Part shown: positions 34,635 through 40,690 of the stretch, piece after piece
Numbering within the stretch: position 1 is the stretch's first letter
How the letters are laid out: each line of letters begins with the position of its first letter
Source of the DNA: Alphaproteobacteria bacterium PA2
Lineage (GTDB): Bacteria > Pseudomonadota > Alphaproteobacteria > Caulobacterales > Caulobacteraceae
DNA: 64,000 nt
Reading direction: 5' to 3'
Assembly: GCA_002256425.1 (NCBI GenBank)
Contig: NKIZ01000001.1
Span: 1,073,943 to 1,137,942 of the forward strand
The notes under the pieces: model-generated
What the model was told of the DNA's origin: nothing
Databases searched by the model: none
The model's input: only the letters and a program-made list of their open reading frames with translations
Translations under genes and position numbers: made by a program

Positions 34635-36050
34635 ATGAGCCTTTCTCCCGACTACCGCCCCGACCCCCGCCTGCCGCGCCTGGGACCCGACTTCGCCGAT
34701 CCGGTTGAAGCTGCGGACTTTCCGGAGACAAGGCTGCGCTATCGCAATCAGAGGGCGGCGGCGACCGTAGGGCTGGATACCCTGAGCGATGAGGAATGGC
34801 GGGACCACTTCGGGCGGTTCAAGCCCCTGCCGGGCAATCTCGAAGCGCCTTTGGCCCAGCGTTATCACGGCCATCAGTTCCGTGTTTACAACCCGGATCT
34901 GGGCGACGGCCGGGGCTTCACCTTCGCCCAGATGCGCGAAGTCGGATCGGACCGCCTGCTGGACCTGGGGACCAAGGGTTCAGGGCCCACGCCCTGGTCG
35001 CGCCAGGGCGACGGACGACTGACCCTAAAGGGCGGGGTCCGCGAGGTTCTGGCCACCGCCATGCTGGAGGCCGTGGGGGTAAACACCAGCAAGACCTTTT
35101 CCCTGATCGAAACCGGCGAAGACCTTCAGCGCAATGACGAGCCGAGCCCGACCCGTTCAGCTGTGATGGTCCGGCTCAGCCATGGGCATGTCCGGTTCGG
35201 CACCTTCCAGCGTCAGGCCTTCCTGGAGCGGCCCGACCAGATCACCCGCCTGGTCGATTATGTGATCGAGACCTACTACCCCGAACTGGAGGCTGCTGCG
35301 GACCGTCGGGCCGCGCTTCTGGAGGCCGTGATTGTGCGGACCGCGGCCATGTGCACGGGCTGGATGGCGGCCGGGTTCGTTCATGGCGTGCTCAATACCG
35401 ACAACATGAACATTACTGGCGAGAGCTTCGACTACGGCCCCTACCGCTTCCTGCCGCGCAATGACCCCAACTTTGTCGCCGCCTATTTCGACCAGAACGG
35501 TCTCTACAGTTTTGGACGGCAGCCCGAGGCGGTGTTCTGGAACCTGCAGCAGCTGGCGGGGTGCCTGGCCTTGGGCGAGGCGGACCAGGAGCCCTTGGTG
35601 GCGGCCCTCAACACCTTTGGCGGCGTCTACCGTAACGCTCTTGCTGCTTCCATGCTCCGTCGCCTGGGGATAGCGCCTGAAAGTCCGGAGGCTGATTTCG
35701 CCCTCGCGGGATCGGCCTTCCGGGCCCTGTCGGTGGGCGGCGATGTCCTGAGGTGGGAGCCCTTCTTCTTCGACTGGTTCTGTGGCGACACCGGTCGCGC
35801 CATGGCCAGTCCCCGGCGGGAGGTCTATGAGGCGCCGGAGTTCGCAGACTTCCGCGCCCTGATCCATGGCCGGACTGCCGACAGACCGGAGCGACTCGAC
35901 GCTCCCTATTTTTCGAACCCCGACCCGCAGGAACTGATTGTCGAAGAGATCGAGGCGATCTGGGCCGATATTGCGGCACGGGACGACTGGTCGGCGTTTG
36001 ATCAGAAGCTTGTGGATCTGGAGGCCACCCGCACGGCCTGGGCGCTCTAG
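34635..36050 (+). CDS. selO: SelO/YdiU family protein adenylyltransferase
   Basis: YHGHQF, LGDGRG, KGSGPTPWSRQGDGR, GFVHGVLNTDNM, FDYGP. Confidence 0.93.
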   Translation: MSLSPDYRPDPRLPRLGPDFADPVEAADFPETRLRYRNQRAAATVGLDTLSDEEWRDHFGRFKPLPGNLEAPLAQRYHGHQFRVYNPDLGDGRGFTFAQMREVGSDRLLDLGTKGSGPTPWSRQGDGRLTLKGGVREVLATAMLEAVGVNTSKTFSLIETGEDLQRNDEPSPTRSAVMVRLSHGHVRFGTFQRQAFLERPDQITRLVDYVIETYYPELEAAADRRAALLEAVIVRTAAMCTGWMAAGFVHGVLNTDNMNITGESFDYGPYRFLPRNDPNFVAAYFDQNGLYSFGRQPEAVFWNLQQLAGCLALGEADQEPLVAALNTFGGVYRNALAASMLRRLGIAPESPEADFALAGSAFRALSVGGDVLRWEPFFFDWFCGDTGRAMASPRREVYEAPEFADFRALIHGRTADRPERLDAPYFSNPDPQELIVEEIEAIWADIAARDDWSAFDQKLVDLEATRTAWAL

Positions 36051-36937
36051 GCCTTTGGTCGGGCCGACCATTGGGCCAGAACGACCCCGCACAGGGCGAT
36101 GGCCCCGCCCAGGGCCTGCATGGGTCCGAAGACTTCACCGAATATGCTCCAGCCCAGCAGGGCCGCAACGACGGGCTGCACAAGAACGGTGACCGAGGCC
36201 GTGGCGGCGGGCAGGCGCCCCAGTGCCCAGGCGATGGAGCCCTGACCCGCCACGTGCATGACCCCAAGACCGATGCAGGCCGCCCAGCCGGTGAGGCTCG
36301 CAGGGATCAGTTGCTCATGCAGGCCCAGCCCCGCCAGGAGAAGAATCGGAGCTCCGGTCAGGCTTGACCAGAACATCAGCCTGGAAGCCCCCATGGTCCG
36401 CCGCGCAGAGCTGACCCCAAGGAAGTAGAGGGCGTACCAGAAGGCGGTCGCGGTGGAGAGGATGTCGCCCAGAAGGGGTGACTTGCCGGCGAACCCAGCG
36501 TCCCGCGCCATGGCCATGATCCAGGCGCCCGCCACTGCAAGGGCCACAGCCACCAGGAAGAGGGGGCTGGGCTTCTGTTTCAGAACCACCCAGGCCACGG
36601 CGGTGACCACAACCGGTGTCAGGTTGGACAGGACAGTCGCCTTGGCGACAGACGTGAAGGCGATGCCATAGTGCCAGAAGCCCAGGTCCAGGGCGAAGGC
36701 CAGGCCGGTGAGCAAGGCGATGGGGGCAAAGCCCGAAATGGCGCCTTCAGCCCGGCGGGTCAGGAGCGCCAGCAAGGGCAGGGCGAAGGTCAGTCGCCAG
36801 AAGCCAGCCATGACGGGTCCGACATCCGAAAGGCGGACCAGGATCGGGCCAACGCCTATGACGCAGGCGCCCAATAGCAGAACCAGCAGGGCCCGGCCTC
36901 GATCTGACTCGTGGGATTGCACAACGGTCTCAGTCAA
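36047..36937 (-). CDS. DMT/EamA family transporter
   Basis: About ten TM segments with a duplicated EamA pattern. Confidence 0.88.
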   Translation of the reverse strand: MTETVVQSHESDRGRALLVLLLGACVIGVGPILVRLSDVGPVMAGFWRLTFALPLLALLTRRAEGAISGFAPIALLTGLAFALDLGFWHYGIAFTSVAKATVLSNLTPVVVTAVAWVVLKQKPSPLFLVAVALAVAGAWIMAMARDAGFAGKSPLLGDILSTATAFWYALYFLGVSSARRTMGASRLMFWSSLTGAPILLLAGLGLHEQLIPASLTGWAACIGLGVMHVAGQGSIAWALGRLPAATASVTVLVQPVVAALLGWSIFGEVFGPMQALGGAIALCGVVLAQWSARPKA

Positions 36938-37781
36938 ACCCGAGGTCCTTTCGAAGGGTTCCGGGTTTCATCCCCGCAGTCCGGAGACTTTGCAGGGTCT
37001 CGGCGTTGTGGCGTTTTGCCAGACGCACGCCGTCGGCGCCACGCAAGAGTGCGTGGTGCCTGTAGACCGGGGTGGGCAATCCAAGCAGGGCCTGGAGCAG
37101 GCGCTGGATATGGGTAGCCTCGAACAGGTCTTCACCCCGGATGATGTGGGTAACCCCCTGCAGGGCGTCATCCACCGTCACGGCCAGATGGTAGGCGACC
37201 CCCACATCCTTCCGCGCGAGGATGATGTCGCCCGCCAGATCGGGCAGGGCGGTGATGAGTCCATGCTGACCTTCCGGGCCGGCGCCTTCCTCTTCAAAGG
37301 TCAGGTCTGTGAAGCTGCCGAGTTCTGATCTGGCGGCCTCGAGGGAGAGCCGCCAGGCAAAGGGTTCTCCCCGGGCGAGGCGTTCGGACTCTTCGGTTGG
37401 CGATAGGGCTGCGCCCCGAAATGCGGGGGCTGTCCCATGGGGCGCGCTGGCCATTTCCTGCGCCACTTCCCGACGGGTCCTGAAACATCGATAGGCCAGC
37501 CCCCTGTCGCAGAGCCTCTCCAGGGCGGCGTGATAATCGGCCATATGCTCGGACTGGCGGCGGACCGGCTCTTCCCAGCCCAAGCCCAGCCAGGACAGGT
37601 CTTCCAGAAGATCAGCTTCAAAGGCTGGACGACAGCGGGTGGTGTCGATGTCTTCAATTCGGAGAATGAATCGCCCGTCCGCCTCCCGGGCGGCGGACCA
37701 GGCTTTCAGGGCTGAATACGCATGCCCGCGATGCAACAGTCCCGTCGGGGAGGGTGCAAAGCGGGTTGTAAATCCGGGCAC
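36930..37781 (-). CDS. gluQ: Glutamyl-Q tRNA(Asp) synthetase
   Basis: RFAPSPTG, HRGH variant of HIGH, LRIEDID, YHLAVTVDD, LAKR; lacks the anticodon-binding domain. Confidence 0.9.
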   Translation of the reverse strand: MPGFTTRFAPSPTGLLHRGHAYSALKAWSAAREADGRFILRIEDIDTTRCRPAFEADLLEDLSWLGLGWEEPVRRQSEHMADYHAALERLCDRGLAYRCFRTRREVAQEMASAPHGTAPAFRGAALSPTEESERLARGEPFAWRLSLEAARSELGSFTDLTFEEEGAGPEGQHGLITALPDLAGDIILARKDVGVAYHLAVTVDDALQGVTHIIRGEDLFEATHIQRLLQALLGLPTPVYRHHALLRGADGVRLAKRHNAETLQSLRTAGMKPGTLRKDLGFD

Positions 37782-37789
37782 CTTGACGG

Positions 37790-38419
37790 CTATTTCGGGG
37801 TCAGGTCCGCAAACACCCGCATGTGGGAGAAGATCCCCCGGAAGAAGGCCTCTTCGCCGCCGACCGCGTCCTTCAGGTGTTCAAACTGTTTGAATGAGGC
37901 CATTTCCGCCAGGCCGTGGGCCGCGCACCAGGCTGCACTGGTGGCCAGTTCCAGACCGATTTCGTCACTGGGGTCAGCGCCAGCTTCGACCAGGGTGTCC
38001 CGCACCTGGCAGTAGGCGCTGTCATCCTGCATGCGGGCATGTTCGGGCAGGTCGTCCTTGTCCCGGGAGCCGTCATACATGACGCGGTACAGGCTTGGAT
38101 TGTCCCGCGCGAAGCAGACATAGGCGACGCCCAGGGCCACCATGCGGTCACCAAGGGATGAAGCTTCCGCCCGGGCCTTGGTCATGGCCTGGTTCAGCAT
38201 TTCCCAGCCTTCATGGGCTACGGCGTCCAGCAGCTCGCCCTTGTCCTTGAAATGATGATAGGGCGCCGCAGGGCTGACGCCGGCTTCCCGGGCGACAGCG
38301 CGCAGGGAGAGGGCGGAGGGACCGTCGCGTTCCAGCAGGCGACGGGCCGCATCAATCAGGGCGCGGCGGAGATCGCCGTGGTGATAGGGCCGGGCTTCGG
38401 CTGCGACAGTTTCTCTCAT
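37790..38419 (-). CDS. TetR/AcrR family regulator with WHG-type C-terminal domain
   Basis: YHHGDLRRALIDAA, LSLRAVAREAGVSPAAPYHHF, AW.AAHG. Alternative GTG start at 38428. Confidence 0.92.
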   Translation of the reverse strand: MRETVAAEARPYHHGDLRRALIDAARRLLERDGPSALSLRAVAREAGVSPAAPYHHFKDKGELLDAVAHEGWEMLNQAMTKARAEASSLGDRMVALGVAYVCFARDNPSLYRVMYDGSRDKDDLPEHARMQDDSAYCQVRDTLVEAGADPSDEIGLELATSAAWCAAHGLAEMASFKQFEHLKDAVGGEEAFFRGIFSHMRVFADLTPK

Positions 38420-38458
38420 GGCTGGCACCGTAATTCTATATCGCTGCCCCGTAAAGGC

Positions 38459-38503
38459 ATCTTGACAATGCTTAGATATCGGCTATCTTAGCATTGTTCA
38501 AAT
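38459..38503. promoter_or_regulatory. Paired 19-bp palindromic operators over overlapping opposite-strand sigma70-type promoters (module 1)
   Basis: ATCTTGACAATGCTTAGAT (38459-77) and ATCTTAGCATTGTTCAAAT (38485-503). Plus strand TTGACA-N16-TATCTT; minus strand TTGAAC-N17-TATCTA. Confidence 0.75.
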
Positions 38504-38550
38504 AACAGATCTCCCCACTCCCCTGGGGCTCAAACTGAAAGGTGTGTGTC

Positions 38551-38652
38551 ATGTCTCTCGCCAACTTCGAGCGTCTCGTCGACCGGATCGTTCCGGCCTT
38601 CCTTCTGGCGCTGGGCCTCGGCGTCGCGGCCGCAATGGCCGGCGCTGTCTAG
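38551..38652 (+). CDS. 33-aa single-TM hydrophobic peptide P1 (not in ORF track)
   Basis: MSLANFERLVDRIVPAFLLALGLGVAAAMAGAV; GAAAGG SD 8 nt upstream; host-like codons; own promoter and terminator. Confidence 0.75.
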   Translation: MSLANFERLVDRIVPAFLLALGLGVAAAMAGAV

Positions 38653-38676
38653 GCTCCTGAAAACTCCGCAAGGAAC

Positions 38677-38703
38677 GGGGCCCCGAAAGGGGCCCTTTTA
38701 TTG
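38677..38703 (+). terminator. Intrinsic terminator after P1
   Basis: GGGCCCC-GAAA-GGGGCCC followed by TTTTATT. Confidence 0.85.
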
Positions 38704-38758
38704 TCCACGAAATCGACCTCAGCCCATACAAAAATGCATGTCGTACATTGTAAAATGT

Positions 38759-38803
38759 AACTGTACACCGTTCAGATTGGCGCTATCCTGCAATTGTCCA
38801 GAC
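38759..38803 (+). promoter_or_regulatory. Paired 19-bp operator-like sites and promoter (module 2)
   Basis: AACTGTACACCGTTCAGAT (38759-77) and ATCCTGCAATTGTCCAGAC (38785-803), exactly 300 bp after the module 1 sites, with the same 7-nt spacer ending GCT. Confidence 0.65.
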
Positions 38804-38849
38804 GGACAAAGGGTTCGGATCCCCCGGCCCAACCCACAGGAGACTTCAC

Positions 38850-38963
38850 ATGACCAACCGTTCCATCCCCGCCTTCGCCCGCGCCGCCGATCTGCTCGTC
38901 GCCATTCTGTTCGTGTCCATGAGCCTGGCCATCGCCGGCGCCTCTACGATCATTGGCGCCTGA
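38850..38963 (+). CDS. 37-aa single-TM hydrophobic peptide P2 (not in ORF track)
   Basis: MTNRSIPAFARAADLLVAILFVSMSLAIAGASTIIGA; AGGAG SD 7 nt upstream; strongly GC3-biased codons. Confidence 0.75.
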   Translation: MTNRSIPAFARAADLLVAILFVSMSLAIAGASTIIGA

Positions 38964-38975
38964 TGCCGGAAGATT

Positions 38976-39021
38976 GTCCTCGCTTGCCCTATTGAGCGGC
39001 GGTCGCCAGGCAAGCGAGGAC
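38976..39021. terminator. 13-bp stem hairpin after P2 (possible terminator or 3' stabiliser)
   Basis: GTCCTCGCTTGCC / GGCAAGCGAGGAC with a 20-nt loop; no U tract. Confidence 0.45.
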
Positions 39022-39203
39022 CTGATCTGCCAGGAGGTGAAATTTTGACAGACCGTCATTCAAGCGCCAAAGAATCAGGCCTATCCTGAACCAGGCTCAA
39101 CCGGACACCGACTGTCCGGGACGCATATTGGACCTCGGGAGACCCGTCTTCAGGCACAGGCTTTCGTTCAACAGCGCGCCTACGCGCACCGGGAGGCCCA
39201 GCC

Positions 39204-39764
39204 ATGGAGGTGCTTAGTCATCCGCCAACTGGGTGGCCGGCCCTTGTGCTGAACGCCGACTTCAGGCCGTTGAGTTATTATCCCCTGTCGCTCTGGCCCT
39301 GGCAGGATGTGATCAAGGCGGTGTTCCTTGATCGCGTTGACGTGGTCTCGACCTACGATCAGACCATCCGGTCACCGTCCTTTGAAATCCAGCTCCCCAG
39401 CGTTGTGGCGCTGAAGAGCTATGTGGCCCAGGACCGGGCTCCGGTCTTCACCCGATTCAACCTGTTTCTCCGGGACTCGTTCTGCTGCCAGTACTGCCGC
39501 AGGGCCGAGGACCTGACCTTTGACCATGTGACCCCCCGGTCACTCGGTGGCCGGACGACCTGGGAGAACATCGTCACCGCCTGCGCCCGGTGCAATTTCA
39601 TCAAGGGCGGCAAGACGCCTGCCCAGGCCAACATGCATCCCTTCGTCAGGCCACGTCAGCCCACCACCTATGAGCTGCAGGAGCGTGGACGGAAGTTCCC
39701 GCCCAACCACCTGCACCGCAGTTGGATGGACTTTCTCTATTGGGACACTGAGCTGGAGGCCTGA
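39204..39764 (+). CDS. HNH endonuclease (McrA/HNH_5-like, ALVLNA family)
   Basis: ALVLNAD N-terminus; CQYC...DHVTPRSLGG...NIVTAC..CN..KG; GGGAGG SD. Confidence 0.9.
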   Translation: MEVLSHPPTGWPALVLNADFRPLSYYPLSLWPWQDVIKAVFLDRVDVVSTYDQTIRSPSFEIQLPSVVALKSYVAQDRAPVFTRFNLFLRDSFCCQYCRRAEDLTFDHVTPRSLGGRTTWENIVTACARCNFIKGGKTPAQANMHPFVRPRQPTTYELQERGRKFPPNHLHRSWMDFLYWDTELEA

Positions 39765-39772
39765 TCCTCTGA

Positions 39773-40690
39773 TCAGGCGACGTCGAACCTGACGGTCGAT
39801 CGCCCGAAGTCCAGGGCGACAGCATCAAACTGCGCCAGAAGGTCCACGCCCAGAATGATGGCGGGCTTGGTCGTGAGATCCCACACCTTGAAGACGCTGG
39901 CTTCGGAGAAGACCACCGGCACATTGCCCAGGGTCAGGCCGCCCAGCCGAAGGAAGGGCAGGTATCCCATTTCCCCAAGAAACTTCTCGCCCACCAGGGA
40001 GGTCAGTTCGACCTGTTCCACATGGGTCCTTCCCGCATCAGCACGGTTCAGAAGCCGCCGCAGCGCCGCATTGCCAATGGAGACCTGCGATCCCGAGTCG
40101 ATCATGGCGCTGATCGGGGCGCCGCTCATGTCGGCGTCCACCATGGTCAACTGACCGGAACGTCGGCGGGCCGGCACCACAACCCGATTGAAGGAGCTGG
40201 TCTCGTGCTTAGGCGGGGCGATCTCGAGGCTCTTGCCCTTGAAGTCCAGGACCAGTCGGCGTGATTTCAGCCAGTCGACTCCCAGAACGCCCCGGGATTC
40301 CTGCGAAGGCATGGGCAGGACGGGAATATTGATCCGCCTCTGGCTCCTGCCGGCAATCTCAAGGCGCTCCACCCGCGCCGTTGGTCGGGGGTGACTGCTG
40401 ACCATGGTGCGAATGGCGACCATGGGGCCCTCAGGAAGATCCAGTTCGTCGGCCAGCTCCCGGGAAATGCAGGAGCGGTTGGCCCCGGTGTCGACCAGGA
40501 AGTTGAAAGGACCCTTGCCGTTGATCAGGACCGGCGCCACCAGACGTGTCGCCTTGTCACGGGTAGCCGGAACCCGGCTGGCGGTTTCATTGGGCGAGAC
40601 CTCGTCCTGCTCCTGGGCGAAAGCCGTCAGGGGCGCGAGGGCGCCTGTCGCTGCGAGCATGTGGGCGAGTGAACGTCGACTGATCGTCAT
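39773..40690 (-). CDS. Two-domain retropepsin-like aspartyl protease with Tat signal
   Basis: SRRSL Tat motif; FLVDTGA and AMIDSGS catalytic motifs; ILGVDLL. Confidence 0.88.
   Translation of the reverse strand: MTISRRSLAHMLAATGALAPLTAFAQEQDEVSPNETASRVPATRDKATRLVAPVLINGKGPFNFLVDTGANRSCISRELADELDLPEGPMVAIRTMVSSHPRPTARVERLEIAGRSQRRINIPVLPMPSQESRGVLGVDWLKSRRLVLDFKGKSLEIAPPKHETSSFNRVVVPARRRSGQLTMVDADMSGAPISAMIDSGSQVSIGNAALRRLLNRADAGRTHVEQVELTSLVGEKFLGEMGYLPFLRLGGLTLGNVPVVFSEASVFKVWDLTTKPAIILGVDLLAQFDAVALDFGRSTVRFDVA

Follow-up and report, generated by a model that had tools for sequence, protein, structure and literature searches.

A TetR-family repressor locus in Phenylobacterium with operators over the promoters of micro-membrane-protein genes

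The subject of this analysis is a 64,000-nucleotide (nt) stretch of contig NKIZ01000001.1 of Alphaproteobacteria bacterium PA2 (hereafter the window), a genome that belongs to Phenylobacterium (Caulobacteraceae). Within it, a minus-strand gene for a TetR-family regulator (tetR) stands divergent from two plus-strand micro-genes, P1 and P2, that encode very small hydrophobic proteins. We consider it likely that this locus is a one-component chemical switch, in which a repressor of the TetR_C_33 subfamily acts through operators placed over the promoters of the micro-membrane-protein genes and is released by a ligand. A preliminary description of the window, made from its letters and a list of its open reading frames (ORFs), had proposed that TetR operators lie on the promoters of genes for small membrane peptides, and this core idea has held up: operator-like sites in relatives cluster upstream of micro-genes, operator pairs found by a pattern scan mostly have a micro-gene next to them, the operator co-occurs with TetR_C_33 regulators across phyla and the transcription start sites (TSSs) mapped in Caulobacter crescentus fit the arrangement.

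The minus-strand ORF is indeed a TetR regulator. Pfam places a TetR_N helix-turn-helix (PF00440, E=2.2e-15) at residues 24-70 and a TetR_C_33 domain (PF13305, E=1.2e-11) in the C-terminal ligand/dimerisation part. By each feature tested here, from both domains to operators that overlap promoters, the regulator is an ordinary member of its family. Its nearest entries in the PDB are 3on2 and 3cjd, both TetR-family structures; the PDB sequence search returned structural-genomics TetR entries alone, 3on2 being titled merely 'Probable transcriptional regulator'.

From the aligned tetR-P1 intergenic regions and three motif blocks we obtained a 19-bp palindrome-like operator consensus, ATCTnnrCrnyGTyyAGAT, and scored sites with a position weight matrix (PWM) built from relatives, the window being left out. 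Three strong sites stand out in the window: operators 1 and 2 ahead of P1, 26 bp apart, and operator 3 ahead of P2 (Table 1). Apart from these (38459, 38485 and 38759), no site in the 64 kb exceeds 13 bits. A looser form of the pattern, allowing at most one mismatch, matches nine times in the 64 kb where 1.6 matches are expected, a count reached by none of 100 shuffles, and a repeat finder returned a 14-nt inverted repeat at 38465-38478/38484-38497. The preliminary description had counted four such 19-mers; three of them are strong and far beyond chance, but the fourth, operator 4, is degenerate and keeps its right half-site only, the equivalent site being strong in most other loci. The three strong sites overlap -35 and -10/+1 elements of the adjacent promoters. 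That of P1 is the TTGACA-N16-TATCTT anticipated from the letters, found at 38462-38489 as the sole sigma-70-like match in 1.6 kb (0.3 expected) and homologous to the promoter of C. crescentus TSS 2435662(-). That of P2 has a weak -35 (TGTACA) under operator 3 and a -10 (TATCCT) at 38784-38789.

This arrangement is widely conserved. Orthologues of tetR with 65-97% identity occur in more than 80 Caulobacteraceae genomes, and at least 80 species of Phenylobacterium and Caulobacter share the layout HNH-[micro-genes]-tetR-gluQ-(eamA)-selO, in which each micro-gene usually has an operator pair of its own. The 216 kb of upstream DNA from 80 loci contain 355 operator-like sites, defined by a match at 7 or more of the 8 outer bases, and 328 of them lie 50-150 nt upstream of a micro-gene start. 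All 79 loci compared have operator 2 over the micro-gene -10/+1, 64 of them with the 26-bp spacing, and homologues of operator 3 precede P2-type genes in other loci. Three strong sites, spaced by 19-20 bp and 26 bp, lie between tetR and the first micro-gene in 65 of the 79; the additional one (site 0) overlaps the tetR -35 in these relatives, whereas the window and its closest relatives (L001-L003) keep two sites. Some micro-genes are orphans that carry a full operator pair at a distance from tetR (L173 2593-2774 and L184 3844-4065), which points to regulation in trans in some genomes. By eye, the neighbours of one orphan are isochorismatase-like and acyl-CoA thioesterase-like ORFs and those of the other dehydrogenase-like and probable membrane-protein ORFs.

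The association of operator and regulator extends well beyond the family. We scanned a species-genome collection for paired operators using the DNA pattern alone, without protein information, and found 135 pairs in 119 loci: in 106 a micro-gene follows at a distance of 20-200 nt, in 94 a TetR homologue lies no more than 250 nt away, and 14 show neither (about half of the latter being tandem repeats in unrelated organisms). Distant pair-bearing loci belong to Gemmatimonadota, Fermentibacteria, Firmicutes, Acidobacteria and other Alphaproteobacteria, and in the nine distant lineages examined by Pfam the adjacent regulator has TetR_N plus TetR_C_33. These regulators are thus like the one in the window in their domain pair and in two ATCTTGACnnCGTnAAGAT operators beside the regulator gene, but their targets are pumps and enzymes rather than micro-ORFs, and none of them appears characterised. 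Their neighbour genes encode RPE65-type oxygenases, TolC/HlyD pumps, a flavin mononucleotide (FMN) reductase, a metallo-beta-lactamase (MBL) hydrolase, an ABC-2 permease and alpha/beta hydrolases, and no small hydrophobic ORF stands in the target position in the distant lineages with an operator pair; the target in the window is therefore unusual for a TetR, as had been supposed. The co-occurrence across phyla is the best support, if indirect, for the view that the adjacent TetR would bind the 19-bp palindromes, and it shows the Caulobacteraceae as having put an old operator to new use.

The target P1 is as the preliminary description gave it, an ORF of 33 amino acids (aa) closed by a terminator (a GC hairpin and T-run), and P2 is an ORF of 37 aa. 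A profile built from P1 and P2 delimits a family of 29-40 aa, present in 79 of 80 loci in 1-5 copies per locus, whose members begin with a short charged N-terminus and continue as an uncharged stretch. When P1- and P2-type sequences are aligned, a single Asp is invariant and a small-residue end, AGATAxxGA, is conserved. The best 19-residue stretch has a hydropathy of 2.15 in P1 (residues 13-31) and 2.23 in P2, and among 143 members the median is 2.19 and the uncharged C-terminal stretch has a median length of 22 residues; by hydropathy, P1 and P2 fit a protein of fewer than 50 aa with a single transmembrane helix. In 78 P1 orthologues nucleotide diversity by codon position is 0.40/0.32/0.50, the GC content of third positions (GC3) is 0.83 and 55% of single-base codon differences are synonymous; judged by these statistics, the micro-ORFs are coding and under codon-level purifying selection. 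Pfam gave no match to P1 or P2 at E<=0.01, and at E<=1 none of its families matched two or more of 34 members; NCBIfam gave no match, and the profiles of known small membrane-protein families in these two databases (AcrZ, KdpF, CydX, MgrB and others) did not match either. The 551 database relatives are all labelled 'hypothetical protein' and carry no Pfam domain (the first row of the search alignment being 40 aa). As far as profile searches can place them, the micro-proteins fall in no described family.

Transcription and translation of the orthologous locus can be followed in Caulobacter. The C. crescentus orthologue of P1 is CCNA_02286, annotated as a 36-aa hypothetical protein (AAK24174, Q9A691), and those of tetR and the gluQ-like gene behind it are CCNA_02287 and CCNA_02288. 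In the rows of the published start-site map that list this locus, to which our statements from that map are confined, 5' rapid amplification of cDNA ends (5'-RACE) places the primary TSS of CCNA_02286 at 2435662(-), with TTGACGGCGTTCAGATTGGTGCTAT at -34, and that of CCNA_02287 at 2435739(+), with TTTACAGCGTTTAGATGAAATTTTA at -35 (Zhou et al. 2015, PMC4287350). Both TSSs have the -35 and -10 elements that had been predicted, 77 bp separate them, and the CCNA_02286 +1 falls inside the equivalent of operator 2. Raw RNA sequencing (RNA-seq) reads on the Caulobacter vibrioides locus rise at a sharp 5' edge, 8 nt downstream of the TSS mapped for the micro-gene, and reach depths of thousands over the micro-ORF versus tens to hundreds over tetR, and in two ribosome-profiling (Ribo-seq) runs the start codon of the micro-ORF carries a small peak of footprints. 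Over the 5'-RACE time course, the listed CCNA_02286 signal is 865 at 0 min after synchrony versus 12-75 later; the high first value may reflect handling stress.

The anatomy, its conservation, the coding constraint and, for the C. crescentus orthologue, the TSS positions and the start of translation are observed; from them we infer repressor-operator binding, ligand release, membrane insertion and the micro-protein role, and the switch would then work as follows. A dimeric TetR_C_33 repressor, the product of 37790-38419, would bind the 19-bp palindromes, and dimers on operators 1 and 2 would occlude the strong housekeeping-type P1 promoter; since these operators cover its -35 and -10/+1, bound repressor would exclude RNA polymerase. 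At P2, where the second site has decayed, a dimer on operator 3 would occlude a weaker promoter. A small-molecule ligand, probably hydrophobic, would release the repressor and so allow the synthesis of two short monocistronic mRNAs for the 33- and 37-aa proteins, which are predicted to be N-in single-helix inner-membrane proteins with the invariant Asp at the membrane boundary and the AGATAxxGA end forming a small-residue face. The divergent tetR mRNA, predicted to lack a leader, would run on into gluQ and a gene for a transporter of the EamA/DMT (drug/metabolite transporter) type. In most relatives the third operator, over the tetR -35, would add autoregulation; with this site decayed in the window, feedback there would be weak or absent.

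Table 1. Features of the locus, in window coordinates (TSS, transcription start site; PWM, position weight matrix; UTR, untranslated region; HMM, hidden Markov model).
Feature	Coordinates	Strand	Basis or remark
EamA/DMT transporter gene	36047-36937	-	EamA E=1e-30 (Pfam)
gluQ-like gene (glutamyl-Q tRNA(Asp) synthetase type)	36930-37781	-	tRNA-synt_1c E=2e-48 (Pfam)
tetR, 209 aa, TetR_N + TetR_C_33 (PF13305) subfamily	37790-38419 (ATG at 38419; stop 37790-37792)	-	Pfam
Predicted tetR promoter: -35 TTTACG 38455-38450, 17-nt spacer, -10 TACGGT 38432-38427	38427-38455	-	homology to mapped C. crescentus tetR TSS (TTTACAGCGTTTAGATGAAATTTTA at -35)
Site 0, degenerate, tetR-proximal, ATCGCTGCCCCGTAAAGGC	38440-38458	.	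PWM -14 bits
Operator 1, ATCTTGACAATGCTTAGAT, over -35 of P1 promoter	38459-38477	.	PWM 27-29 bits; position conserved in 80 loci
P1 promoter: -35 TTGACA 38462-38467, -10 TATCTT 38484-38489, predicted TSS G ~38496	38462-38496	+	promoter scan
Operator 2, ATCTTAGCATTGTTCAAAT, over -10 and +1 of P1 promoter	38485-38503	.	PWM 30 bits
P1 5' UTR hairpin: stem CCCCA/TGGGG, loop CTCCCC	38513-38528	+	compensatory changes
P1 micro-gene, 33 aa, MSLANFERLVDRIVPAFLLALGLGVAAAMAGAV, one hydrophobic helix	38551-38652	+	orthologues in 79/80 loci
P1 intrinsic terminator: 8-bp GC stem, GAAA loop, T-run	38677-38702	+	hairpin and T-run at 38677-38696
Operator 3, AACTGTACACCGTTCAGAT, over weak -35 (TGTACA) of P2 promoter	38759-38777	.	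PWM 22-24 bits
Operator 4, degenerate, ATCCTGCAATTGTCCAGAC, overlaps P2 -10	38785-38803	.	PWM 1.4 bits
P2 micro-gene, 37 aa, MTNRSIPAFARAADLLVAILFVSMSLAIAGASTIIGA, P1 paralogue	38850-38963	+	tblastn + HMM matches
Hairpin after P2: perfect 13-bp arms, 20-nt loop, no U-tract	38976-39021	+	-38 kcal/mol, z = -4.1
HNH endonuclease gene	39204-39764	+	constant neighbour of micro-gene array

The control of tetR itself departs from the earlier picture. The preliminary description had read a minus-strand TTGAAC-N17-TATCTA as the tetR promoter. The letters are present, but we rejected this candidate because its -10 is specific to the window (relatives carry GATCTG) and because the mapped TSS of the orthologue uses a more proximal promoter. 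The homologous promoter in the window is given in Table 1, and a TAnnGT hexamer stands 7 nt from the tetR ATG in 46 of 79 loci. Transcription is predicted to start at about 38420, one base ahead of the ATG, and the mRNA would therefore be leaderless. Relative to this promoter, operator 1 lies at about -39 to -57, and the strong operators of the window miss the tetR core promoter. The autoregulatory layout that had been proposed would fit the 65 relatives with a strong site over the tetR -35, but full autoregulation is doubtful in the window lineage, where that site has decayed.

Several observations weigh against the proposed switch. The micro-gene mRNA is abundant in ordinary cultures of C. 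crescentus, with a listed coverage of 689 past its TSS versus 173 for tetR, which implies that repression is leaky or that an inducer is normally present and the system partly induced. Ribosome footprints are few (13-15 reads in a 600-nt stretch). Two of the five sites in the window (38785 and 38440) are degenerate, so that control of P2 and autoregulation may be weak. Finally, our literature search found no binding or deletion report for any member and no functional study of CCNA_02286 or CCNA_02287, save for an entry in a table from the pull-down of the small RNA (sRNA) GsrN. An explanation that shifts the weight to the other strand is that the tetR-gluQ-eamA unit is the main physiological output, with the DMT permease as effector and the micro-genes as accessory subunits or passengers. 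The three genes are tightly packed: gluQ starts 8 nt past the tetR stop on the same strand, eamA and the gluQ end overlap by 8 nt and neither junction has room for a promoter, and gluQ is probably co-transcribed with tetR and eamA probably the third gene of the unit. In addition, wherever a locus reaches far enough gluQ is the gene behind tetR, and most Phenylobacterium loci continue with eamA; transporters are controlled by distant TetR_C_33 relatives with the same operator, and CCNA_02287-02288 are listed as a single transcription unit (Schrader et al. 2014, PMC4117421). With these three genes arranged as one compact unit, the locus has outputs besides the peptides, and the earlier claim that the micro-genes and tetR are the only local targets has to be given up. 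Yet we think it unlikely that this unit is the main output, given that the number of operators scales with the number of micro-genes and that orphan micro-genes also carry them, that many Caulobacter loci retain the micro-gene without an eamA in this place, and that the degenerate operator of the window is the very one over the tetR -35. C. crescentus reads also fall more than 10-fold past tetR, a drop that strain divergence may exaggerate and on which we do not rely because the reference differs from the sequenced strain in that stretch.

The paucity of footprints beside such abundant RNA would also suit short transcripts that act mainly as regulatory or dual-function RNAs, the peptides being secondary. 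The P1 5' UTR has a hairpin in which four of five pairs have compensatory changes and the C-rich loop is conserved among 32 Phenylobacterium leaders, and a pull-down of GsrN, a general-stress sRNA, enriched the CCNA_02286 region (NA1000 2435450-2435500 (-)) with a log2 value of 3.26 (Tien et al. 2018). Nothing similar to the hairpin is apparent in Caulobacter leaders, however, although the peptide is retained there; the amino-acid-level constraint, the high GC3, the invariant Asp and the start-codon footprint peak all favor a translated product, and Rfam scans of window positions 37000-40000 and of the C. crescentus-type locus gave nothing near threshold. We regard an RNA as the main product as the least probable of these explanations. 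Scarcely more probable is that the micro-proteins are repressor-controlled membrane-damaging toxins that arrest growth under stress, by analogy with the LexA-controlled tisB and dinQ. A dedicated repressor over genes for single hydrophobic helices of some 30 aa would suit such a toxin system, but the high mRNA level in healthy, growing Caulobacter together with the lack of an antisense TSS beside CCNA_02286 among the 5'-RACE rows listed (2435374(-), 2435662(-) and 2435739(+)) argues against potent toxins. The leader is simple, with a good Shine-Dalgarno sequence, the genes come in 1-5 copies, and the micro-proteins have no profile match in Pfam to type I toxin or SOS-type membrane peptides (TisB, DinQ, Hok, Ldr).

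With the ligand-released repressor as the preferred reading, our best guess is that the micro-proteins modulate a membrane protein or membrane properties under chemical stress; their single helix, with its invariant Asp and small-residue face, is suggestive of contact with a helix of a partner. A fuller formulation, which we hold only tentatively, is that they are a new Caulobacteraceae-specific family of ligand-inducible inner-membrane modulators, and that rewiring has taken a TetR_C_33 sensor from the control of pumps and enzymes to that of a near-exclusive regulon of micro-genes (1-5 per genome, some unlinked) that tunes a membrane complex or the membrane itself on a chemical cue. In a bolder version, the micro-proteins resemble signal peptides without cargo (a charged n-region, a hydrophobic core and an A-x-A-like end) and would act on the secretion or signal-peptide-processing machinery.

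The Tn10-type TetR/tetA system is a divergent repressor-operator module whose target is a pump. The locus shares with it the divergent repressor gene, two palindromic operators on promoters, the TetR_N domain and a presumed release by ligand. It differs in that its targets are membrane proteins of 29-40 aa rather than a pump, in having TetR_C_33 in place of the TetR(B) C-terminal domain, in giving each extra micro-gene copy its own operator pair even when the copy is unlinked from tetR, and in a tetR mRNA for which we predict no leader and a continuation into gluQ-eamA. Similar in its output is NalC-ArmR of Pseudomonas aeruginosa, in which ArmR, a soluble protein of 53 aa, binds MexR as an anti-repressor and is encoded on one transcript with a larger gene; in both systems a TetR-family repressor governs a small peptide rather than a pump or enzyme as the de-repressed output, but the peptides described here are predicted membrane helices without detectable similarity to any Pfam family. 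Small membrane proteins under stress regulators include AcrZ (MarA/Rob/SoxS), MgtS and MgrB (PhoP), MntS (MntR), and TisB and DinQ (LexA); most are single-helix membrane proteins and several modulate a transporter or kinase. AcrZ, MgrB, TisB and their like resemble the micro-proteins in being very small and commanded by a dedicated sensor-regulator, but have no sequence relationship to them, and they differ from the present locus in regulator class and in its multi-copy paralogues with operators on each. Our literature search found no TetR regulon described as built almost wholly of multi-copy micro-membrane-protein genes.

Few bacterial gene products are as poorly understood as small membrane proteins, of which only some have a clear regulatory handle, whereas here a whole paralogous family appears to stand under a dedicated, probably ligand-responsive repressor with well-defined operators. 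The subfamily would also be a case in which DNA specificity is kept across phyla while the output shifts from pumps and enzymes to micro-proteins. As the CCNA_02286/CCNA_02287 pair sits in a genetically tractable model organism, both function and inducer are directly testable.

The hairpin in the P1 leader could be an mRNA stabiliser, a site for an sRNA or protein, or a seed. Sequestration of the Shine-Dalgarno sequence in this leader was considered and dropped, as shuffled sequences fold about as well (z = -0.4) and the bases that would pair occur in the window only. The hairpin after P2 begins 13 nt past the P2 stop and is probably the 3' end of the transcript, either as a terminator without U-tract or as an RNA-stability element.

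Around the locus, selO is convergent to tetR-gluQ-eamA, and its end overlaps that of eamA. The eamA product has a weak SLC35F-like match (E=0.009), and the gluQ type is the enzyme of tRNA-Asp queuosine glutamylation; conceivably the transporter is linked to queuosine metabolism. On the other side, the C. crescentus orthologue of the HNH gene, CCNA_02283, has been named as possibly regulated by CcrM methylation. A separate TSS is assigned to it among the listed rows (Zhou et al. 2015, PMC4287350). In one wetland metatranscriptome, contigs of low depth, which may be DNA carry-over, cover P1, P2, the HNH gene and the tetR/gluQ junction.

A metagenome-assembled genome (MAG) of Phenylobacterium (L058/L266, about 460-1745) carries five micro-genes in tandem, among them a divergent 29-aa 'VPV' subtype, and a recognisable full operator pair on some copies only. 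The abundant RNA 3' of the C. crescentus micro-ORF was weighed as a 3'-UTR sRNA and is largely accounted for by the separate TSS of a greB-like gene in the listed rows. Ribo-seq footprints in C. vibrioides at about 2545-2586 cover the ATG of an eight-codon mini-ORF, MIHEFFRP (L089 2542-2568 (-)), whose stop overlaps the ATG of the greB-like CCNA_02285 and which may be a translationally coupled leader peptide.

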